NCBI GenBank assembly: GCA_017743475.1
Contig: JAGHYV010000002.1
Span: 13,844-77,843, forward strand
Source: Roseiflexus sp.
Lineage (GTDB): Bacteria; Chloroflexota; Chloroflexia; Chloroflexales; Roseiflexaceae
Reading direction: 5' to 3'
Length of the DNA: 64,000 nt
Part shown: positions 8,345 through 18,086 of the stretch, in pieces
How the letters are laid out: every line of letters starts with the position of its first letter
Numbering within the stretch: position 1 is the first letter of the stretch
Position numbers and translations under genes: made by a program
Notes under the pieces: generated by a model
Database searches by the model: none
What the model was told of the DNA's origin: nothing
The model's input: the letters and a program-made list of their open reading frames with translations, nothing else

Positions 8345-8373
8345 TTGACAGCAATGCGATAGTCATGTACTAT
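8345..8373 (+). promoter_or_regulatory. Sigma70-type promoter of the small-ORF/rpmB/rpsR operon
   Basis: TTGACA (8345-8350), 17 bp, TACTAT (8368-8373). Confidence 0.75.
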
Positions 8374-8379
8374 TCATAG

Positions 8380-8402
8380 TTGATTGAAACTATCATTATC
8401 AT
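8380..8402. promoter_or_regulatory. Fur/Zur-like operator
   Basis: TTGATTGAAACTATCAT(TATCAT) just downstream of the -10. The reverse complement of 8382-8400 matches the Fur box GATAATGATAATCATTATC at 14/19, and it matches 17174-17190 at 13/17. Confidence 0.6.
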
Positions 8403-8421
8403 ATCGAGGAGCACGCCGGTC

Positions 8422-8655
8422 ATGGCAGAGAAGAAATCGAAAACCGACGTTACTGCCCGCGATAAGACGGGCCGGGTGACCAACCGGTACTGCAACCATT
8501 GCGGGCAGCGGATTATGAATGACCGTGAGATGGTTGTGATCATGGACGGTCGGCGGCGGAACAAGACGTACTACCGACGCGATTGCTTCAACCGCCTGTT
8601 GAGCGCGGATCGTGAACTGGGGCTGGATGGTTCGCAGACCTGCCCCCTGCGCTGA
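8422..8655 (+). CDS. Small basic hypothetical protein with CxxC
   Basis: GAGGA RBS at 8406-8410, then MAEKKSK...RYCNHCGQR...YYRRDC; first gene of the operon. Confidence 0.7.
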   Translation: MAEKKSKTDVTARDKTGRVTNRYCNHCGQRIMNDREMVVIMDGRRRNKTYYRRDCFNRLLSADRELGLDGSQTCPLR

Positions 8656-8678
8656 TATGCCTGTCGAGGGGAAACCAT

Positions 8679-8954
8679 ATGGCAACGTGTGATCTTACCG
8701 GCAAGAAAGTCGCCTTCGGGCGCAACATTCGCCACAAAGCGTCCGGGGGATGGGCGCGCCGCGCTCCCAAAACCAACCGCACCTTCCGACCGAATGTTCA
8801 TCGGCACACGATATACGTGCCGGAGATCGGGCGCACTATCACGCTCAATCTTTCGACGAAGGCGCTGCGGACGATCAACAAGAAAGGGTTGATCGCCGCC
8901 GTGCGTGATCAGGGGCTGTCGGTCGAAGCATTTCTCAAGGAGCACCTTCGATGA
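8679..8954 (+). CDS. rpmB: 50S ribosomal protein L28 (Cys-poor paralog type)
   Basis: [19 protein letters not shown]...[11 protein letters not shown]...STKALRTI; only one Cys. Confidence 0.9.
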
Positions 8955-9217
8955 CGCATCAGGACGGATCTCACCGTATGCGCGGACGTGGGAGGCGCAA
9001 AAAAGTCTGCGAATTTTCGCGTCTCGGCATCTTGCCGGACTACAAAGACCCGGAGCGGCTCAAACGTTTTCTTGGTCCGACGGGGAAAATCCTGCCGCGC
9101 CGTCGCACCGGTCTGAGCGCAAAAATGCAACGTAAATTAACCATTGCTATCAAACGAGCGCGACATATGGCGCTTTTGCCATTCGTCGAGCGCAGTATCA
9201 CCGACCGGCGACGCTGA
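8951..9217 (+). CDS. rpsR: 30S ribosomal protein S18 (Cys-poor paralog type)
   Basis: KKVCEFS...[49 protein letters not shown]; no CxxC. Confidence 0.92.
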
Positions 9218-9241
9218 ACCGCAGTTGTGGGTGCGTATCAA

Positions 9242-9331
9242 GAATTGAATCCTCAATCTTCATGAGCCCCACAATCAGAACGTTCGGCATACCGGATGAG
9301 TCGCCGGACTACCGCGCAAATACCGGTTTCT
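9242..9331 (+). repeat. ~90-bp degenerate intergenic repeat (second copy 15085-15176)
   Basis: GAATTGAATCC...TCTTCATGAG...CGTTCGGCATACCGG-ATGAG...GACTAC aligns with GAATTAAGTCC...TCTTCATCAG...CGTTCGGCATGCTGG...ATGAG...GACTAC. Confidence 0.6.
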
Positions 9332-9492
9332 GCATAATGTTGGCCCCTCCGCGTCGTTGTCGCCGCGTGGGTGACAACAACAGTTGCGTATCTCCACGTT
9401 TATGCCGACAGTCAGGCGACGTTGTTTCCCCGCCCTCTGTTTCTCGACCCTGTACGCCGCTTTCCAAATCAACAGAAGTCGCCCAACCTTGA

Positions 9493-9520
9493 TTGACACG
9501 TGCGTATCGTTCTGTATACT
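9493..9520 (+). promoter_or_regulatory. Sigma70-type promoter of the His-rich gene
   Basis: TTGACA (9493-9498), 16 bp, TATACT (9515-9520). Confidence 0.6.
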
Positions 9521-9578
9521 AGAGGTAACAGACGCAGGCGCGCCGGATGAGCCTGCCAGGTGGAAAGGAGCCAGAGTG

Positions 9579-9902
9579 ATGTCGCATACGGTTCACGAAC
9601 CGCATCCTCATGTCCACAGCGAGCATTGTGGGCACATTCGCATTCTTCACGACGGGCACGTGGATTATCTGCATGACGGACATCTGCACTACCCGCACGA
9701 GGGGCATTATGATGAGCATGTAATTGCAGTCAGCGCCGATAACCCCGATATCTGCGCTCCCATTGCATGCCAGTGCGGACATGATGGATGCGGACATCCA
9801 CTTGTTCCACATGGTGACCACTACGACTATCTGGTAGATGGACGTTTGCATCACTCCCACGGTGATCACTGCGATGACCATGGTCCGGTGACTGTGGTGT
9901 AG
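9579..9902 (+). CDS. His/Cys/Asp-rich small metal-binding protein with an internally duplicated motif
   Basis: AAGGAG RBS. Two copies of CGH...H(D/G)(G/D)HxDYLxDGxLHxxHxxHxDxH in 107 aa. Confidence 0.8.
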   Translation: MSHTVHEPHPHVHSEHCGHIRILHDGHVDYLHDGHLHYPHEGHYDEHVIAVSADNPDICAPIACQCGHDGCGHPLVPHGDHYDYLVDGRLHHSHGDHCDDHGPVTVV

Positions 9903-10052
9903 GTGAATGTCAGCAGCGAAGGAGTAAGAGCCAGACCTGAGGGTGTGGAAGCCCTGATGCTGCGCATTCAGGTGTGGGTAAGAGCACGCCCCGTTTCCCC
10001 CTTCCTTACACAAGCAAGTTCTCTGACAAGCCTCTGCGCGCTATCTCCCGGT

Positions 10053-10142
10053 TCAGGAATCAGGACGCCCAGGGTCCCCCTTCTCCCACAATGGGAGAAG
10101 GGGGCAGAGGGGGATGAGGGGCAAAAGCGTACCGGAATGCAG
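10053..10142 (+). repeat. REP-like element with a perfect 13-bp hairpin
   Basis: CCCCCTTCTCCCA-CAA-TGGGAGAAGGGGG (10076-10104). Flanks ATCAGGACGCCCA and GCAAAAGCG.AC.GGAATGCAG are shared with 15939-16019. Lies between convergent genes. Confidence 0.8.
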
Positions 10143-10174
10143 AACATCACTCAACAACACACGTCTCGCCGCAA

Positions 10175-10744
10175 TCATCGCAGATCGAACGTTCGCGCGC
10201 GAGGACCGCGATCACTCGCCTCGACAGTGACCGAGATCTGATCACCCTCCTGGAGTGACCGCCGAACCTGGCTGAAGAGCGATCCGTGGACATACACATC
10301 GAACTGCGGATGATCGACGCGCGCAAAGAGGAACCGCCCTGCCGGGTCGATACGCACAATCGTGGCATTGACCGGACCGGATGGGAGTGGACCGGTATAC
10401 GGCTCCCGGTCACGCCGGGAACGTTCGCCCGACCATCCACGCGACTCTCCGCGTGGTCGATCATGCGAGCGTGACCAGTCTTCGGAACGACGTGAACGGG
10501 ATGCGCTGCTTGCCTCAATGGCTTCGTCGGTGATCCTGCCATTCCCCGACACATCGTGGGGGCAGACGCGCCCACCAGTAATATCGGTCAGACTTCGTCC
10601 CTCCTTCCGTGCCCGACGCCCGGCAGGGCAACGGGTCGGTTCGTTCGTAAAGCCTTTCTGCGCATAAAACTCCTGCTCGCCCGCCGTGAACACGAACTCG
10701 CCGCCGCAATCCTTACAGGGAATGTGCTTGTCCTTGAAACTCAT
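10175..10744 (-). CDS. Zinc-ribbon (CxxC-x17-CxxC type) protein fused to a cold-shock/OB domain
   Basis: N-terminal CKDCGGEFVFTAGEQEFYAQKGFTNEPTRCPAG; C-terminal GRFLF...DVYVH...LQEGDQI...GPRA resembles CSD RNP1/RNP2. Confidence 0.75.
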   Translation of the reverse strand: MSFKDKHIPCKDCGGEFVFTAGEQEFYAQKGFTNEPTRCPAGRRARKEGRSLTDITGGRVCPHDVSGNGRITDEAIEASSASRSRRSEDWSRSHDRPRGESRGWSGERSRRDREPYTGPLPSGPVNATIVRIDPAGRFLFARVDHPQFDVYVHGSLFSQVRRSLQEGDQISVTVEASDRGPRARTFDLR

Positions 10745-11024
10745 AGATGGGTGTCCTTACTGTCTCCTTGTCATCCTGATAGTCCCGGATGCGGTCGCCC
10801 TCCCGGAAGACGAGCGAGGTGAGGTTTGGTACGCCTGCCATCAACCTGTCCACGATGAGTGGATAACCGATGCCGGGGTGCAAATGATCTTGTCTATCAG
10901 TTGCAATTTCTACTATACCCGATTGAGGAAACACATGTCAAGGAAATGAACCAGAAAAACGATACGGTCTATCGATGCAGCGTACCGATCACCAGCACGC
11001 TGCATCGATGCATCGGAACTGCAG

Positions 11025-12224
11025 CTACTTGAGGAAGAAGGTGGTATACAGCCCAACCAGGATGAAGAAGGCGAACCACGCGCCCAGCATACCGGTGGCA
11101 ATCGACCCAAATTGTTCTACGCGCGGCGACACGCTGCCATCGCGCTTCGTCCCGCCTGATTGATACAACACCAGCGCCAGGTACGTGACGACGGCAACGC
11201 CGACGATGGTGGTTACGCCAAAAATCAGGATCGACCCCCAATCTATGATGTAGGGGTACTCAGATACGCGATACCCAAACCGTTCCAGAGAGACTGCACG
11301 GATGACTTCCCGCACAACGCCGACCGTCATCAGCGATGCAAACCAGACCAGCAAGGTACGCGGTGCGTGCTGCATCGGTTGCTTCAAGAAGAAGAAATAG
11401 CTGGTCAGCGCCAGTCCAAGACTCGTCAGCGCAACCCCAAGTGGTATGCCGATGCCGAACTCGACGCCTTCCGTCGCTGCCCATAGCAGGCCGGCCAGTG
11501 TATACAGCGGACTGACGACCAGACCGATCAATCGTCCTTGCCTGGCGACCCACTGCATAAAGGGCGCATCCTCTTCAATACGCCGGAAATACCATGCGAA
11601 CAGGGTGAGCACCACTGCCAGGCTCAAGCCCGCCTGCAATGGTAGAAGAAACGTCAGGCGCGGGATATTCCATGAATGGAAAACAACACCGCGCGTGTCG
11701 ATAACACCGTTCGGCGCGTACCATTCCATCCAACGCTCAGGACGGATCGACACCGATGCCAAGACGTGCATCACCCATCCGGCGAAAAAGAGCAACACGA
11801 ACGACGCCACTGCCGACCAGAGCAGTTTTCCGTCGGCGCTCCCTTTGAGATAAAACAGATACGCCAGACCGTAGCCACCCATCATCACAAAGATGAAACT
11901 CACCGACCAGAAACCGGTCAAGGCATTGCTTGCGTACCAGAGAGGGTCATGGATCGTCTGCACGAAGAGCAGCGGCGCAATTCCCGTCACAATGCCGAGT
12001 CCAACCGCGTTGGGCGTCAGCCGTGCTGCGACGCGCCCCAACCGCAGGCGATAGTCAGTCGGGCGCAGGAAACAGGCAATCGAGCACGCGCTCGACCCAA
12101 GCGCCAGGGTTACAAAGAAGATGTGCAAGACCCATGTCACCACCAGCAATACCTGTAATGCAGGCGGATAGAACGGTGCACCCAGCGGGTCGCGCATCCG
12201 TTCGAGCATATCGCCAATGTCCAT
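11025..12224 (-). CDS. CydA-like membrane subunit (second paralog) of a cytochrome bd-superfamily complex
   Basis: ~10 TM segments with WVLHIFFVTLALG, NAVGLGIVTGIAPLLFVQ and REVIR, echoing CydA helices; directly downstream of 12228-13634. Confidence 0.65.
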   Translation of the reverse strand: MDIGDMLERMRDPLGAPFYPPALQVLLVVTWVLHIFFVTLALGSSACSIACFLRPTDYRLRLGRVAARLTPNAVGLGIVTGIAPLLFVQTIHDPLWYASNALTGFWSVSFIFVMMGGYGLAYLFYLKGSADGKLLWSAVASFVLLFFAGWVMHVLASVSIRPERWMEWYAPNGVIDTRGVVFHSWNIPRLTFLLPLQAGLSLAVVLTLFAWYFRRIEEDAPFMQWVARQGRLIGLVVSPLYTLAGLLWAATEGVEFGIGIPLGVALTSLGLALTSYFFFLKQPMQHAPRTLLVWFASLMTVGVVREVIRAVSLERFGYRVSEYPYIIDWGSILIFGVTTIVGVAVVTYLALVLYQSGGTKRDGSVSPRVEQFGSIATGMLGAWFAFFILVGLYTTFFLK

Positions 12225-12227
12225 GTC

Positions 12228-13634
12228 TTACCTCCTGACTTGCGCCTGGGGTTGTGGCGCATACTGCTGTTGAACGAAGTATTCCAAATACAGCGCCATT
12301 GCCGCCCGTTCTTCGGGTGTGCCGACAAACGGGTGCATGTAAGGGAAGGCGCCAATGCGCTGCAGGTACGCTTCAATCTTCGGTGCAGTCGTCATCTTGC
12401 GTCGCTCCAGCAACTGCGCCAGCGAACGCAGTGCCAGGCGCTGATCAAAAATAGTGATCGCCGTCTGATTGCTGACACTGTGGCATGCCGCGCACTGCTG
12501 AATGACCAGCACACGCCCCATCATAACCTGATGATCGGGCAGTCCGGCTGTCGCTCCAACCGAAATCGTCTCTGGACGTGGCAGAAACGGCAGTGAACCG
12601 AGCATACCAGTCTCGTTCAACGGCTCCTCTTCGCTTTGAATTCCACGCGCAGGGATATCGTTGAAGACCAGTTGATTCGAGGACATATAGCCAGCAATAA
12701 TGTCTGGCTTACGAATGACTTCACGGGTGCGCTCCGCGCCAAAAATGGCAGCAAACAGCACTAGCATCGCCCCAAGTGCAATGATCGGATGCTGACGACG
12801 CGGCATTGCCAGCGCAAACAGCAACCCCAGGAAGGTCGCAATCAGCCCACCGACAATGACCGTAAATGTAATAGGTGGAATGGCTGGAGAGCGCAGAATA
12901 GTTTTTGCATGATCCGGAAGCACAGGGTAGAACCAGAGGAACCAAATGCCAAGTGCGATGATCAGCCCGCCGAGCCCTATTGCTGCCGCTGTACGGATGA
13001 TCTGCTCACGCGCGAAATATCCTTTTGGCAAGCTGGTAGCGATTAGCATTACCCAGGCTGCAGTGATGGTGAACATCAGGAAAAACCGCGTGAGCAGCTG
13101 CGGCCAGAAGGTGGGGTTGAAGAAACCGTTCAGGCTCTCACCAGTCGTAAACCAGAGTCCCGGTGTCAACTTGAACGACAGAATGCCGACAATGAGCGTC
13201 AAGGTACCGGTGCCTCCCAACGCCAGAATCCACGCCAGCCGCAGGTGCGTTCGCGGACTGACCCGCCCGAAGGTGTAATAGTAGGCGATAATCCCCACGA
13301 CATCGATCAGGAACATGTACCATTCTGAACCCCAGTAGAGCACAAAATTGTGGATGAGAGTGGAAATACCACGTGGGTTGGCAACAGTCGTAGTTTGCCA
13401 GATTCCCACGCCTGCCAAAGCGCCAAAGACGTATGCGAACACCAATAGCCCCAGTGCACTCCGTTTGAGATAGACGTACAGTTCCGGGCGATTTTCGTAC
13501 ACTGCGCGCCGTTCCAGGTACAGGTTGAACCACGCTGCCGCAACCGTCAGGTGCGAAACAAGGACATGGAAGGCGGACACAATAGCGACGAACATCGCCG
13601 AGTGAATGAAGATACCTTCCCATACCGGATACAT
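12228..13634 (-). CDS. CydA-like membrane protein with C-terminal c-type cytochrome (CxxCH)
   Basis: AFHVLVSH, WGSEWYMFLID and ERTREVIRKP are CydA-like; no Q-loop; CAACH and a distal Met (YMHPF) near the C-terminus; GGAG RBS. Confidence 0.75.
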   Translation of the reverse strand: MYPVWEGIFIHSAMFVAIVSAFHVLVSHLTVAAAWFNLYLERRAVYENRPELYVYLKRSALGLLVFAYVFGALAGVGIWQTTTVANPRGISTLIHNFVLYWGSEWYMFLIDVVGIIAYYYTFGRVSPRTHLRLAWILALGGTGTLTLIVGILSFKLTPGLWFTTGESLNGFFNPTFWPQLLTRFFLMFTITAAWVMLIATSLPKGYFAREQIIRTAAAIGLGGLIIALGIWFLWFYPVLPDHAKTILRSPAIPPITFTVIVGGLIATFLGLLFALAMPRRQHPIIALGAMLVLFAAIFGAERTREVIRKPDIIAGYMSSNQLVFNDIPARGIQSEEEPLNETGMLGSLPFLPRPETISVGATAGLPDHQVMMGRVLVIQQCAACHSVSNQTAITIFDQRLALRSLAQLLERRKMTTAPKIEAYLQRIGAFPYMHPFVGTPEERAAMALYLEYFVQQQYAPQPQAQVRR

Positions 13635-13683
13635 AGGTGCTCCTCGTGATTGCTCAGCGGCGACATATCGTGATATACTTCAC

Positions 13684-13703
13684 GATTATTTGCAATAATA
13701 ATC
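13684..13703. promoter_or_regulatory. Perfect 7-6-7 inverted repeat overlapping the predicted -10/TSS (candidate repressor site)
   Basis: GATTATT-TGCAAT-AATAATC; the minus-strand -10 TATTAT is at 13700-13695. Confidence 0.55.
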
Positions 13704-13722
13704 ACAAAGTATCCGGCTGTCG

Positions 13723-13736
13723 TTGCGCTGGCGCAA
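13723..13736. promoter_or_regulatory. Crp/Fnr-family (NnrR-like) box at -41.5 of the cydA-like promoter
   Basis: TTGCG-CTGG-CGCAA is a perfect 5-4-5 palindrome. Its centre is -41.5 when TATTAT (13700-13695) is taken as -12..-7. Confidence 0.7.
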
Positions 13737-13786
13737 GTTTGCGAGGGCATCGGGAGAGATTATTGAACAGTTGCAACGGTGCGATA

Positions 13787-14473
13787 TTACGACTCGAATG
13801 ACGTCTCCGCCCGCGTGAGCAATTGCTGGCGATCAGTCACAACCACGCACCCGCGTCGACTCTGCACCAGACCCTGCTGTTGCCAGAGATGGAGCAGGCG
13901 ATTGACAGTGTAGTGACTCACGCCGATAAGATCGGCAAGATCGCGCTGCATAATCGGTATCTTCACCTGTCCTGGTGCGCTGATCGGCGCGCCATACTGG
14001 TCAGCGAGGCGGATGAGCGCATGCGCCAGGCGTTGCTCCACATGCTCAGTTGCCAGTTCAAGAAATTGCTGTTGAAGATGATCACGATACTCAGATAGCA
14101 GTCGCAAACTGCTACGCTGGAGCACCGGGTAGCGGTCGATCAAACGGTGCAGGTCGCATGCGCGCCAGGTGAGCAACCGGCAGGGCGAAATCGCCTGTGC
14201 TGCGAGGGTGTACATCCCTTCCGGCAGAACTGCGCTGATCCCGACTATATCCGACGGACCGGACAGGCGAATGACGCTCTGTCGTCCATCAGCAGCGAGT
14301 TTGTAGAGACGTACCCATCCATTCTGCACTGCATATAGCGCTTCCGCCGGAGTATGTTCCTCAAACAAGATTGCACCGCGTCGTGCCTGAGATACACGCG
14401 CATAAGCGGCAATATCGTCGAGCGCCTGGGGATCGAGACCTTCGAAGAGTCGGTAGCGTTCAAGCACGTGCAT
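13787..14473 (-). CDS. Crp/Fnr-family transcriptional regulator (no FNR Cys cluster; Dnr/NnrR-like)
   Basis: cNMP-binding fold (GAILFEE...GWVRLYKLAADGRQ), HVEQRLAHAL and HTH QRDLADLIGVSHYTVNRLL. Confidence 0.88.
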   Translation of the reverse strand: MHVLERYRLFEGLDPQALDDIAAYARVSQARRGAILFEEHTPAEALYAVQNGWVRLYKLAADGRQSVIRLSGPSDIVGISAVLPEGMYTLAAQAISPCRLLTWRACDLHRLIDRYPVLQRSSLRLLSEYRDHLQQQFLELATEHVEQRLAHALIRLADQYGAPISAPGQVKIPIMQRDLADLIGVSHYTVNRLLHLWQQQGLVQSRRGCVVVTDRQQLLTRAETSFES

Positions 14474-14493
14474 AGTGTAATCCTTTTGGGGGC

Positions 14494-14539
14494 GACCGCG
14501 AGATACGCCTGATCCTCCACAACAGGCGCGTCTCGCGTC
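14494..14539. other. Strong stem-loop between the CxxxC ORF and the crp/fnr gene
   Basis: CGCGAGA (14497-14503)/TCTCGCG (14531-14537) and CGCCTG (14506-14511)/CAGGCG (14523-14528); no U-tract. Confidence 0.6.
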
Positions 14540-14588
14540 TCCCGTCAGTTACAATGAAGTAACGGAGAAGATATGCAGGAATGCCGCG

Positions 14589-15038
14589 TTATGATAATGC
14601 TGACAGATGCAAGCGGGCAGGGCGGACGCTACGCGGCGGAGGGGTCAAGGGCGGCAGAGGTTGATGACGGGGGCTATCTTGAACAGTCGGAGTTGCGCCG
14701 ACAGGATGCAGCGCGTGTCCGATCATCAGCAATGTCGTCAGCACGATTGGGTGCACAATCTCCGGCAGATGGTGGCTCAATGGTGTCTGGTCGTCAGAAT
14801 TCAATGTCCGTTCGCCAAAATTGCAGACGAACAGCGGCAATGGCTGTGTCATAAGTCGCTGTACCCACGGCATCACCTGGCAGTGAATGATACACATCAC
14901 TGGGGCATGCAATGCGACACACCAGAAAAGGAACAGAACCAGAGCGCATTGAACCGCGCGCCGTACTGCGCGCATCGGTGGATGAAGGAGAATAACCAGA
15001 TTTGGTGTTGCCGACGAGCCCTCAGGCATCACGATCAA
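14589..15038 (-). CDS. DUF2946/CutF-like small protein (signal/TM segment, CxxxC, Pro-rich C-terminus)
   Basis: Hydrophobic ALVLFLFWCVALH, CIIHC and C-terminal PLPPLTPPPR; likely start at 14975 or upstream. Confidence 0.55.
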   Translation of the reverse strand: MIVMPEGSSATPNLVILLHPPMRAVRRAVQCALVLFLFWCVALHAPVMCIIHCQVMPWVQRLMTQPLPLFVCNFGERTLNSDDQTPLSHHLPEIVHPIVLTTLLMIGHALHPVGATPTVQDSPRHQPLPPLTPPPRSVRPARLHLSALS

Positions 15039-15084
15039 TGCGCTGTCATTTCAGATAAATGTCGAAAGGCACGATGAATTTTCA

Positions 15085-15176
15085 GAATTAAGTCCAGGTT
15101 CTTCATCAGTCTCGCAGCCGGAGCGTTCGGCATGCTGGGAAATGAGCTGCCAGACTACAGGGCGAATTCCAGTTTA
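15085..15176 (+). repeat. Second copy of the ~90-bp repeat at 9242-9331
   Basis: 27/41 identity over the first 41 nt by my ungapped count, plus shared CGTTCGGCAT and GACTAC blocks. Confidence 0.6.
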
Positions 15177-15378
15177 TATTGTCAATCTTCATATGCGTTG
15201 ACCTGGGTGGATCGGCGCATCTCGATAAAGGTGACGATCGGACGCACCGTCATGATAGTAGACTGTGAAAGAAAGCGCAAATCAATCGCCGCTCGTTTTG
15301 CGAGACGCTATCAGTCAATCCCCGGCATATGGTACAATGGGAGAGAAAACGCTGCTCTGGAGTAAGAAGGGCAATGCA

Positions 15379-15843
15379 ATGAGTCGTTTTCTTGACGAAC
15401 GCAGACACACGCTGCCGCCCGCAGTAACGACCCTCGCTGAACAACTTGCTGCTGCCGGGTACAAAGTCACCCAACCGCGCCTCGCAGTGCTTAAAGCGAT
15501 CACGTCGCTGCCCGGTGCATTCAGCGTTCAGGAAGTCGAGCAGTGGCTGATCGAACGTCATGAGTCGCCGGGAATCGCCAGTATCTTTCGCACTATTCGG
15601 CTCCTCTGCGACCTTGGCATGCTCCAGCGCATCCACGGTCTGGACGAGTGCCATCGGTACTGTCTGGGCGGCGGGCACAGTCACCATCTGGTATGCACGC
15701 AGTGCGGCGTTATCGAGCGCTTCGACAACTGTGGCTTGCAGGGAGTTATTTCCGGGCTTGAACAGTCCACCGGCTATCGCATCACCAGCCACGTGGTCGA
15801 ACTGTTTGGTCTATGCCCGCAGTGTCAGTCGATCACAGCCTGA
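15379..15843 (+). CDS. Fur-family transcriptional regulator (Zur-like)
   Basis: KVTQPRLAVL, SIFRTIRLL, HSHHLVCTQCG and FGLCPQC; AGAAGG RBS. Confidence 0.9.
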   Translation: MSRFLDERRHTLPPAVTTLAEQLAAAGYKVTQPRLAVLKAITSLPGAFSVQEVEQWLIERHESPGIASIFRTIRLLCDLGMLQRIHGLDECHRYCLGGGHSHHLVCTQCGVIERFDNCGLQGVISGLEQSTGYRITSHVVELFGLCPQCQSITA

Positions 15844-15938
15844 ACCGGCGGCGATGTCCCACTCCCGTTCCCGGAAACCGCCTGCGGTGCGGTCTGATGT
15901 GGCGCACCCACGGGCGCCGCTGATACAGCGAAGCGTTT

Positions 15939-16019
15939 TCAGGCATCAGGACGCCCAAACTCCCCCTTCTCCACTTGTGGGAGAGGGGAATGAGGAGCAA
16001 AAGCGCACGGGAATGCAGC
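15939..16019 (+). repeat. REP-like element (copy of 10053-10142)
   Basis: TCAGGCATCAGGACGCCCAAACTCCCCCTTCTCCACTTGTGGGAGAGGGGAATGAGGAGCAAAAGCGCACGGGAATGCAG, between convergent fur and permease genes. Confidence 0.8.
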
Positions 16020-16026
16020 AACCGGG

Positions 16027-17160
16027 TTATGATCCGAATATCCGGTTGAGCAACAGTCCTAGCAGCATCACATACGCCGCATACCAGAGCACAACCTTGA
16101 TGGCGTTGATGCGCCCGATCAACCGGTCGAGCATCGCCCATTCCGGGATCGATGAGACTGTAGTTGCCATCATCGCCGCTATCAATGTTCCAATCGGCAC
16201 GATCTGGTGGAGGGCCACCAGGATCGGCCCCGTTGATGCAGCATTGATGTCGAGCGGCAACCCCAGCAGCGTGGCCGCGATCGGACCCCACCATGCAGTA
16301 CCAGCCTGCTTCAGGTACTGGACCAGCGTGAGATTGAAATTGACCAGGATGCCCGCTAGCAATCCGCTGAACAGCACGACGCCGAATAACCGTTTGAACA
16401 GGGTCCACGCCTCACGGTGCGCGCGGGTCAGGATGCTTTCTTTGACACACCCGCAACCGGGATGGTCGGGCAGGTGGCGTTGCACAAACCGCGATGGATC
16501 GAGTCCCAGCAACGGTGCAAGGTACGCCGTGGCCAGCGCCGCAGCAATCCCTGCCAGAACGTAGATGAGTGCGCCGGTCGGACCGACGATCACGAACATG
16601 AATATGATCGCGAACTCATTCAATGCCGGGCTGGCAAACAGAAAGGCGGACGAAGCGCGCTGGCTGGCACCGCCAGCAACAAGCCCGACATACAGGTTCG
16701 TCACTGTGCACGAGCAGACCGGGGTCACCATCCCCATCAGCGTCCCGCCAACGGCGCCGATCAGGTCGTTGCGTCCGATAGTGCGTTCGATCCACGTTGT
16801 GCTGATGCGCAGGCGGATCAGCGCCATGCCATACGTGGTCAAAAACAGGATGATCGGCAGTTTGAACCACTCATATATCGTGTACGATGCGGTATATTTC
16901 ACGTCGAGCGGTCCGAACGGAGTAGGCACAATCCATGCTGGCATCCAGTCGGTCAGCGCCTTCCCCAATGCTTTCCCGGTCTGCGCAATCGGCGCTTCAA
17001 AGACCGGCACGATGCTTCTGGCTTCGGCGCCTGCCAGCCACGCACTCATACTCTGGAACAACGCCATCCCGACAATCAGCGTCAGCACTGCGAGCGAAAT
17101 GATCGGCATCACGCGCTCGAACGATCCACGTGCAGCGGTCAAAGTTGGACGGTTGAGCAT
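16027..17160 (-). CDS. Predicted permease (DUF318/ArsP-like, two-repeat)
   Basis: GMVTPVCSCTV, AFLFASPALNE and a second-repeat LGLPLDI; GGAGAGG RBS before ATG 17160. Confidence 0.8.
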   Translation of the reverse strand: MLNRPTLTAARGSFERVMPIISLAVLTLIVGMALFQSMSAWLAGAEARSIVPVFEAPIAQTGKALGKALTDWMPAWIVPTPFGPLDVKYTASYTIYEWFKLPIILFLTTYGMALIRLRISTTWIERTIGRNDLIGAVGGTLMGMVTPVCSCTVTNLYVGLVAGGASQRASSAFLFASPALNEFAIIFMFVIVGPTGALIYVLAGIAAALATAYLAPLLGLDPSRFVQRHLPDHPGCGCVKESILTRAHREAWTLFKRLFGVVLFSGLLAGILVNFNLTLVQYLKQAGTAWWGPIAATLLGLPLDINAASTGPILVALHQIVPIGTLIAAMMATTVSSIPEWAMLDRLIGRINAIKVVLWYAAYVMLLGLLLNRIFGS

Positions 17161-17173
17161 ATCCTCTCCGTAA

Positions 17174-17190
17174 ATGATAGTAAATATCAT
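17174..17190. promoter_or_regulatory. Fur/Zur-like operator
   Basis: Perfect 6-5-6 palindrome ATGATA-GTAAA-TATCAT just upstream of the permease RBS. Confidence 0.65.
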
Positions 17191-17340
17191 ATACCAAGGA
17201 GACTATACCACTGTACCTGCATTTGTCAAGATGGTGTGTTTTCAAGATAACGCGCTATCGATGTGAGCGCGATCGCAGCGTTGCTGCCCCTGGTGCACCG
17301 ATGGCGCGGCTGGCATCTCGCAATGGTTCGTCTCTTGCCT

Positions 17341-17913
17341 TCAGAATAGACCAGCGCACTGGTGTGCCAGGTGCTGCCACTCCTCGACCAACCGCTCGAT
17401 GGCGATGTGAAAGGTGTGCTTCGTCGACTCGTCGGCGCAGCGATGCCGATATGCGAGACCATACGTGTTGCGCACCCACATTTCGTACTGCACGATCCAT
17501 TCAAGCAGCGCAACAAACTGCCGATGCATCCGCTGCCGCGCGTCGGGTTCAGGTGGGATAGCCGCAGGGCGTATCTGGTCGGGCAACCAGGGCAGACGTT
17601 GAGCGTTAAGCGGCGCGGTCCACATGGGGGTAAACTCGTACCGTTTGAGATAGATTCCGCCTTCTGTCGGGTTGCCGTAGAATGCGCCGAATCCCCACAA
17701 CACGACGCACGCCTCCGACTCAAGCGCCATCAGATAGGCGCTGCTCCCAACTGCGCCGGATGGCGGTCGCTGACGAGAGAACCCATACTCCAGCAGGAGA
17801 TTCCCTTCAGCGCGACGAATATCGCAGCCCCACAGCCAGCATTGCAGATGAAGCAGTTCCGCGCCACGCCTTCGGACCGGTTCAGGCAGGACGATACAGG
17901 CGTCGGGTGTCAT
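17341..17913 (-). CDS. Conserved-looking hypothetical protein
   Basis: LLHLQCWLWGCDIRRAEGNLLLEYGF...; ORF 17341-17964, probable start at 17913. Confidence 0.65.
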   Translation of the reverse strand: MTPDACIVLPEPVRRRGAELLHLQCWLWGCDIRRAEGNLLLEYGFSRQRPPSGAVGSSAYLMALESEACVVLWGFGAFYGNPTEGGIYLKRYEFTPMWTAPLNAQRLPWLPDQIRPAAIPPEPDARQRMHRQFVALLEWIVQYEMWVRNTYGLAYRHRCADESTKHTFHIAIERLVEEWQHLAHQCAGLF

Positions 17914-17954
17914 CGCTTGATCCTGATCGTTCGCAGTGGTTTCCTTGCCCGTCA

Positions 17955-17971
17955 ATGATAGCAACTACCAT
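17955..17971. promoter_or_regulatory. Fur/Zur-like operator
   Basis: ATGATA-GCAAC-TACCAT, 14/17 identical to 17174-17190. Confidence 0.55.
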
Positions 17972-18086
17972 TTTTGGATGACGTAATAATAGTGACACTC
18001 AATGGTTTCGTCAACCAAATGGTCTTTGCCTGAATGTATGCGGAGCAGAGGACATATCCTGTATTACTACCTGTGCGCCGTCTGTT

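Follow-up and report, generated by a model that had tools for sequence, protein, structure and literature searches.

In a 64,000-nucleotide stretch of the genome of a hot-spring bacterium, Roseiflexus sp. (assembly GCA_017743475.1), hereafter the window, a 17-bp palindromic box recurs in front of an operon of alternative ribosomal protein genes, a permease gene and the gene of an uncharacterised 190-aa protein termed hyp190. These boxes are most likely the operators of Zur, a zinc-responsive repressor of the Fur family encoded at 15379-15843 of the same window, a reading drawn from sequence comparison to which we give a probability of roughly 0.85. It is read as Zur repression that is lifted at zinc scarcity because the genes behind the boxes point to zinc and because the syntenic regulator keeps the Zur-type Cys. 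The targets are zinc-acquisition and zinc-sparing genes: Cys-less (C-) paralogs of ribosomal proteins L28 and S18, two COG0523 genes and, in a sister clade and in Ktedonobacter, znuA. The window corresponds to contig C188 of the 4.97-Mb, 206-contig assembly, and the genomes of the same genus used for comparison include two complete ones of 5,801,598 and 5,723,298 bp.

The palindromic box and its promoter positions

A preliminary description of this DNA had listed three 17-mers at 8380, 17174 and 17955, and all three were read directly from the sequence at these positions. They lie upstream of the genes it had named, with box 1 before the ribosomal operon, box 2 before the permease gene and box 3 before the hypothetical gene at 17341, here hyp190. 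A fourth box of the window, at 10884-10900, had been overlooked. The boxes and the predicted promoters that they accompany are as follows.

8345..8373, + strand: predicted sigma-70 promoter of the ribosomal protein operon (TTGACA, 17 nt, TACTAT), read from the sequence
8380..8396, no strand assigned: Box 1, TTGATTGAAACTATCAT, beginning 7 nt past the -10 hexamer and spanning the predicted transcription start site (TSS)
10884..10900, - strand: Box 4, CTGATAGACAAGATCAT in gene orientation, about 12 nt past a TTGACA / TATAGT promoter, 14.1 bits
17174..17190, no strand assigned: Box 2, ATGATAGTAAATATCAT, in the stretch that separates the predicted TSS of the permease gene from its Shine-Dalgarno sequence
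17202..17229, - strand: predicted permease promoter (TTGACA, 16 nt, TATAGT), conserved in 7 genomes
17955..17971, no strand assigned: Box 3, ATGATAGCAACTACCAT, about 15 nt past the -10 hexamer of the hyp190 promoter
17986..18014, - strand: predicted hyp190 promoter (TTGACG, 17 nt, TATTAT)

Position counts from 26 orthologous sites gave a consensus that is a perfect 8-1-8 palindrome, ATGATAGT-n-ACTATCAT, in which G3 and C15 are invariant (26/26 sites). The core of this palindrome is the 7-1-7 repeat TGATWGW-n-WCWATCA. The canonical 7-1-7 box of the Fur family is TGATAAT-n-ATTATCA, from which the Roseiflexus core differs at essentially one position per half-site.

The degenerate pattern was found 7 times in the window, a count that takes in both strands of the palindromes, against 0.29 expected matches, and this number was reached in 0/100 dinucleotide-preserving shuffles. 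The form ATGATA-N5-TATCAT with up to two mismatches gave 6 matches against 1.64 expected. Across the whole genome (4.97 Mb), a weight matrix that is partly circular, being trained on the window boxes and their orthologues, ranked the three original boxes 1, 2 and 4: box 2 is the top site of the genome (27.9 bits), box 1 has rank 2 (24.3 bits) and box 3 scored 22.9 bits. An earlier and smaller matrix had ranked the same three boxes 1-3. The intergenic DNA (1.04 Mb, 55.5% GC) contained 4 sites of at least 22 bits and 7 of at least 18 bits, compared with 0.05 and 0.9, respectively, in dinucleotide shuffles. Occurrence at background frequency in AT-rich intergenic DNA had been named beforehand as an outcome that would speak against the motif; because the intergenic high scorers far exceed the shuffles, the rate is not that of AT-rich spacer DNA.

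The positions of the boxes are conserved. Those of the other Roseiflexus genomes with this operon, and also a second genus, have box 1 unshifted, directly past the -10 hexamer, in the form ATGATTGAnnCTATCAT; the -35 and -10 elements of the operon promoter are conserved in 9 genomes. Box 2 is kept in 7/7 Roseiflexus genomes with the permease gene, at the same spacing to promoter and ribosome-binding site and with differing flanking bases. The box 3 site upstream of hyp190 was found in 5 genomes, this one included, and box 4, as (A/C)TGATAGnnAAGATCAT or, in one genome, AAAGTCAT, at the same position in all eight Roseiflexus genomes for which the upstream sequence was available. Box 4 is less certain than boxes 1-3, since its match is poorer in the right half-site and since conservation takes in the adjacent 5' untranslated region (UTR) as well. 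That the matches are mere chance likenesses among promoter regions would fit with the AT-richness of these promoters and with the ability of right halves such as TATCAT to serve as -10 hexamers, as in front of the gene COG0523-A described below. This explanation has next to no probability, given the shuffle counts above, and is refuted by the constancy of the boxes in up to 9 genomes that differ in the flanks and at the central N positions.

The boxes start 7-15 nt past the predicted -10 hexamers or, in the case of COG0523-A, overlap the -10, and the operator thus abuts or overlaps the predicted core promoter and TSS, the latter bracketed roughly by RNA contigs. In metatranscriptome contigs from hot-spring mats, the depth of sequence words was high at about 8415-9219 and zero at 8364-8404, and it collapsed upstream of about 17937. 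The depth of contigs reflects expression poorly, and carry-over of DNA is possible in mat metatranscriptomes, but the contigs show the operons to be expressed in the mats and are compatible with the predicted operon and hyp190 promoters. The operon of alternative ribosomal proteins is abundant in these contigs, which hints that Roseiflexus in the mats may meet zinc limitation in situ.

Genes behind the boxes

The genes of the window considered here, the proposed regulator among them, are listed below.

8422..8655, + strand: small77, a basic 77-aa CxxC protein encoded by the first gene of the operon; no family hit
8679..8954, + strand: Cys-less (C-) paralog of L28 (PF00830, 75.6 bits; TIGR00009)
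8951..9217, + strand: Cys-less (C-) paralog of S18 (PF01084, 85.8 bits; TIGR00165)
10175..10744, - strand: protein with a zf_Tbcl treble-clef zinc finger (PF13451, 78 bits) and a cold-shock-like domain (CSD; weak match)
15379..15843, + strand: Fur-family regulator, proposed Zur (PF01475, 73.7 bits)
16027..17160, - strand: ArsP_1 / DUF318-type permease with PVCSC and GCGC motifs, proposed zinc importer (PF03773, 68.2 bits)
17341..17913, - strand: hyp190, 190 aa, of an uncharacterised family; no family hit

The L28 encoded behind box 1 contains 1 Cys, and the primary L28 of this genome (contig C183) carries CMIC...CTRC. Likewise, the boxed S18 contains 1 Cys and the primary S18, encoded next to ssb on contig C149, has CMFC and 2 further Cys. 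Judged by these residues, both pairs display the classical C+/C- pattern.

The first protein of the operon, small77, had no match in Pfam or NCBIfam. It is the long form of a family confined to the Chloroflexia, every homologue of which is annotated as hypothetical, and this genome also encodes a housekeeping form, a 61-aa paralog (C195:27496-27681) that is 72% identical. Among the 27 family members compared, the short form always has C24, C27, HH51-52 and C55. In the long, boxed form, HH is replaced by Y(R/Y), H26 is gained in nearly all members, and a C-terminal extension with a conserved Cys is present in all. From the alignment, the small77 switch appears as a ligand exchange, with HxxC lost and a C-terminal Cys and an internal His gained, rather than as a clean loss of Cys. 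A PDB sequence search with the 61-aa paralog returned only chance ankyrin matches. The fold search with small77 gave nothing significant (best E = 0.26, with a model of medium confidence, pLDDT 75); its top matches were ribosomal zinc ribbons of the eS27 and eL24 types, which may be taken as a hint only. Small77 is probably a zinc-free stand-in for a zinc-binding protein.

In the treble-clef/CSD protein behind box 4, the fourth zinc-binding Cys is replaced (RCPAGR), and this loss is kept in all orthologues; the zf_Tbcl paralogs on contigs C81 and C102 retain RCPSCR. The 5' leader of the gene, about 140 nt long (10745-10883), is highly conserved across the genus and holds a CCAC...GTGG hairpin. 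Possibly it acts, in addition to the box, as a regulatory element of the cold-shock type or of another kind.

The permease has orthologues in 7/10 Roseiflexus genomes. It fell below the cut-offs of both NCBIfam efflux equivalogs, SO_0444 (50.3 bits, cut-off 300) and SaoE (45.6 bits, cut-off 325), and its membership is limited to the broader PF03773 family. A relative from Shewanella, the ArsP-DUF318 protein Shew_3410, acts in zinc efflux and stands under the control of ZntR (bioRxiv 10.1101/072470). For the Roseiflexus permease import is the more coherent reading, because a Zur-type repressor box in front of a gene leads one to expect expression at low zinc. The permease is thus probably a zinc importer, and it is in this direction of transport that the model is weakest. 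A single 1.8-kb RNA contig from the mat metatranscriptome covers the permease gene and most of hyp190, which is compatible with co-transcription of the two.

Between the regulator and permease genes (15937-16027) lies a dispersed palindromic repeat, CCCCTTCTCCACTTGTGGGAGAGGGG..., with about 90 blastn matches in the genome, one of them at about 10106-10142 of the window. RNA contigs pile up on this repeat, and some strains join 15850 to 16027, omitting 176 bp. It looks like an element of the REP or MITE kind with presence/absence polymorphism.

Hyp190 had no Pfam or NCBIfam match, its homologues are all annotated as hypothetical and lack a Pfam domain, and its AlphaFold (AF2) model (pLDDT 94, pTM 0.91) gave no PDB fold match at E<0.001. 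The homologues adjoin znuACB, COG0523-WD40 or ArsP_1 and Fur genes in 5 of the 7 other contexts found. In Ktedonobacter robiniae, the homologue is located directly upstream of znuA-znuC-znuB, and AATGATATnnnGTATCATT precedes both hyp190 and znuA. In the genome GCA_000526415.1 it is part of a cobW-MoCF-hyp190-COG0523-WD40-COG0523 string, two acidobacterial contigs have it behind COG0523, WD40 and a small open reading frame (ORF), and a further Roseiflexaceae contig displays the hyp190-ArsP_1-Fur arrangement again. One context from the Thermomicrobiales had no zinc gene nearby, and another homologue had only the box-like ATGATACAACATATCAA upstream. Based on these neighbourhoods of distant homologues, the hyp190 family appears to be a recurrent uncharacterised companion of zinc-homeostasis genes.

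Outside the window, the site with matrix rank 3 is found on contig C15, 44 nt upstream of COG0523-A, and the site with rank 9, on the same contig, lies ahead of an ORF of the FmdB-like zinc-ribbon type and of a second COG0523 gene. Both C15 COG0523 proteins contain PF02492 (cobW), PF07683 (CobW_C) and the motif GCICC, with a His-rich tract in addition in the second of them. The COG0523-A box overlaps the promoter spacer and the -10 hexamer and is conserved in 7 Roseiflexus genomes, and order-level relatives have TGATACTTGGTATCA at its position. The clustered local zinc regulon of the preliminary description is therefore clustered, as proposed, but not solely local, since the COG0523 genes on C15 are boxed too. 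Its expectation for a genome-wide scan was borne out by the COG0523 genes and not by the other two candidates, as znuA is unboxed here and GTP cyclohydrolase IB is absent among the top sites.

The znuA gene (contig C81, upstream region C81:24896-25160) encodes a protein with His-rich loops, and its box is absent or decayed in this genome and in its two closest relatives. No site of 8 bits or more was detected in this genome at znuA or at the second ZnuA-family operon (C55). In four castenholzii-like genomes, ATAATAGATGCTATCAA lies over the -10 of znuA, and the control of znuABC may have been rewired in a clade-specific manner. The three genomes without a znuA box share an element, TTTTTGATACTnTGTATATA, beside the ribosome-binding site.

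Other genera have the same parts in different arrangements. In genus G010 (loci L042/L069), znuC, znuB, a C- L28 gene, a small77-like gene and COG0523 apparently form one string, as deduced from combined coordinates. In G017, the second genus mentioned above (L040), the genes for small77, C- L28, C- S18 and hyp190 follow each other in this order, and a Fur-family gene is convergent to them. The motif is Chloroflexota-wide, because ATGATA-N5-TATCAT precedes znuA and the hyp190 homologue in K. robiniae; these sites, together with the promoter conservation throughout the genus, uphold the earlier suggestion of a Zur-type motif of the Chloroflexota.

Several lower matrix hits, located inside genes or in front of genes without an obvious link to zinc, were not counted as members of the regulon. 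Among them are C6:21352, C56:39931, C56:144950 and C106:22808, the last before a Zn-type alcohol dehydrogenase gene. At C58:29379-29395, ATGATTGAAACGATCAT (19.2 bits) is located right past a TTTACA / TATGAT promoter and 35 nt before a gene for a CheY-ANTAR response regulator; this site, a possible additional target or else a coincidental match, was likewise left out of the count.

Between the boxed operons of the window, positions 9579-9902 encode a 107-aa protein with a very high content of His and Cys and with CGH...DGH motifs in duplicate. The gene has its own TTGACA / TATACT promoter, the protein had no family hit, and no box was found at the gene (best score below 0 bits). The protein may be a metal buffer under different regulation.

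The Fur-family regulator and its probable signal

The Fur-family gene that the preliminary description had placed at 15379 is indeed present. Its product has two CxxC pairs and keeps the equivalents of C79, H84, H86, H87 and H122 of the Zur protein of Streptomyces coelicolor (ScZur). Among solved structures its best match is a Fur entry, followed by the Zur proteins of S. coelicolor and Mycobacterium tuberculosis at ranks 2-4, and the E-value against ScZur and MtbZur is about 1e-15. The gene adjoins the permease gene, in convergent orientation, in 7/7 Roseiflexus genomes examined. Its own upstream region contained no site above 6 bits, and autoregulation was rejected. The genome holds two Fur-family genes. 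The product of the second (C179:42217-42771) lacks the Zur-type Cys at the position of ScZur C79; no box of the Zur type was found in the vicinity of this gene, and a search there for a second type of box was also empty.

Under zinc sufficiency, a zinc-loaded Zur dimer would bind the 8-1-8 palindrome. Such binding is expected to block transcription, since strong sigma-70 promoters have the palindrome on top of their -10 and TSS or a short way downstream. When zinc becomes scarce, the zinc of the sensing site would be lost from Zur and the DNA released. Derepression would then turn on zinc-free stand-ins, namely L28, S18, probably small77 and the treble-clef/CSD protein, and along with them the two COG0523 metallochaperones of C15, the ArsP-type permease as proposed zinc import and hyp190.

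Besides the partial circularity of the matrix, several observations weigh against this model. The sensing residues D65 and H85 of ScZur align with Q and S in the 15379 protein, and the metal specificity is therefore not readable from its sequence. The NCBIfam equivalogs for Fur, Zur and PerR all stayed under their cut-offs, with the Fur models highest. In this genome, znuABC, the classic Zur target, is unboxed. Small77 retains four Cys (C24, C27, C55 and C74) and is therefore not plainly zinc-free. Finally, the characterised relatives of the permease (Shew_3410, SO_0444 and SaoE) are exporters, which counts against the model unless this member imports. Since the sensing residues are partly replaced, the assignment to zinc draws mainly on the regulon and not on the protein sequence.

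A rival reading is that the boxes are Fur-family operators that answer iron, manganese, cobalt/nickel or peroxide, bound either by the C179 paralog or by the 15379 protein acting as Fur, Mur, Nur or PerR. The half-site is one position off the canonical iron Fur box, the NCBIfam models for Fur and PerR score slightly above that for Zur, the best PDB match is annotated as Fur, and the acidobacterial homologues of hyp190 adjoin genes for the cobalt/nickel transporter CbiMQO. We nevertheless regard such another signal as improbable, for the regulon consists of Cys-less replacements of zinc-ribbon proteins and COG0523 genes, together with ZnuA with His-rich loops in sister clades, and the top sites come without genes for siderophores, haem, catalase or manganese transport. 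The C179 paralog, without the Zur-type Cys, is moreover syntenic with no box.

Even less probable, and in our estimate very unlikely, is that an unrelated transcription factor uses the palindrome as its operator, with the neighbouring Fur-family gene a coincidence. The lack of a box at zur itself would fit with this, but the 7-1-7 architecture TGATA...TATCA is typical of the Fur family, and synteny of the regulator with two boxed genes holds in 7 genomes and recurs in the further Roseiflexaceae contig. Other regulators are not consistently linked to the boxes, and the Crp/Fnr gene at 13787-14473 belongs to an adjacent cyd-like cluster. Repression by Zur is the preferred explanation of the boxes.

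The two uncharacterised families may also be combined in one wider reading, which we consider tentative and rather doubtful. Here, small77 and its 61-aa relatives would be a ribosomal or ribosome-bound zinc-ribbon protein specific to the Chloroflexia, and hyp190 a conserved partner of zinc uptake or COG0523 systems. Zur could then replace the housekeeping CxxC...HxxC form of small77 by one whose ligands differ and whose gene is co-transcribed with those of the alternative L28 and S18. Hyp190 could act in both Chloroflexota and Acidobacteria, in Roseiflexus alongside an ArsP-type permease running as a zinc importer.

Relation to known zinc regulons

In its workings the system resembles the Zur regulons known best from Actinobacteria and Firmicutes, and it most probably is one of this type. 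Actinobacterial Zur, such as Rv2359/FurB of M. tuberculosis and the protein of S. coelicolor, controls the alternative operon rpmB2-rpmG-rpsN2-rpsR2. Shared with these regulons are a regulator of the Fur family, here the proposed zinc sensor, a palindromic operator at the core promoter and Cys-less L28 and S18 as well as COG0523 among the targets. The operator sequences differ, with TGATAG-n3-CTATCA in Roseiflexus against the TGAAAATGATTTTCA type in Actinobacteria. Unlike the actinobacterial operon, that of Roseiflexus is led by the uncharacterised 77-aa protein and is devoid of L33, S14 and L31 paralogs. Its regulon also differs in the addition of the ArsP-type permease, hyp190 and the treble-clef/CSD protein, and in that znuABC is unboxed.

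A switch between C+ and C- paralogs of ribosomal proteins was reportedly described by Makarova, Ponomarev and Koonin in 2001, and in Bacillus subtilis L31 and S14 paralogs are under the control of Zur. The Roseiflexus pairs agree with this switch in that the primary copies carry CxxC pairs and the Zur-boxed copies lack them. In contrast to the classical case, the logic appears to be extended to small77 and the zf_Tbcl-CSD protein, which belong to non-ribosomal or unassigned zinc-finger families, and the zinc-sparing paralog strategy may hence extend past the classical ribosomal proteins.

The permease resembles the Cu/Zn efflux permeases SO_0444 and Shew_3410 in its PF03773 family and in a paired-Cys motif in a transmembrane segment. 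These two are induced by excess zinc via ZntR, whereas the Roseiflexus permease is located behind a Zur-type box and scores far below the equivalog cut-offs; a role at low zinc is thereby proposed for a permease family otherwise known for efflux of metals and arsenicals.

No specific study of Zur in Roseiflexus or Chloroflexi was found in the literature. In RegPrecise 3.0, the Chloroflexi are covered by a collection of 5 genomes and 30 transcription factor regulogs, and Zur has been reconstructed in more than 25 taxonomic groups (PMC3840689). Like the Zur regulogs of that database, the regulon described here is a prediction from comparative genomics. Given these contents, the motif may figure there already, in a Zur regulog of the Chloroflexi. 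Worked out in the present analysis are the links to hyp190 and small77, as well as the finding that one clade has lost the znuA box.

The comparison thus yields a concrete, predicted pair of operator and regulator for zinc homeostasis in filamentous anoxygenic phototrophs, a subject on which the literature search turned up no experimental paper, and it ties hyp190, which has neither a domain assignment nor a PDB fold match, to zinc genes in at least two phyla. The kind of switch is known, and what is new is its uncharacterised cargo: small77 with its housekeeping paralog, hyp190 and the ArsP-type permease.

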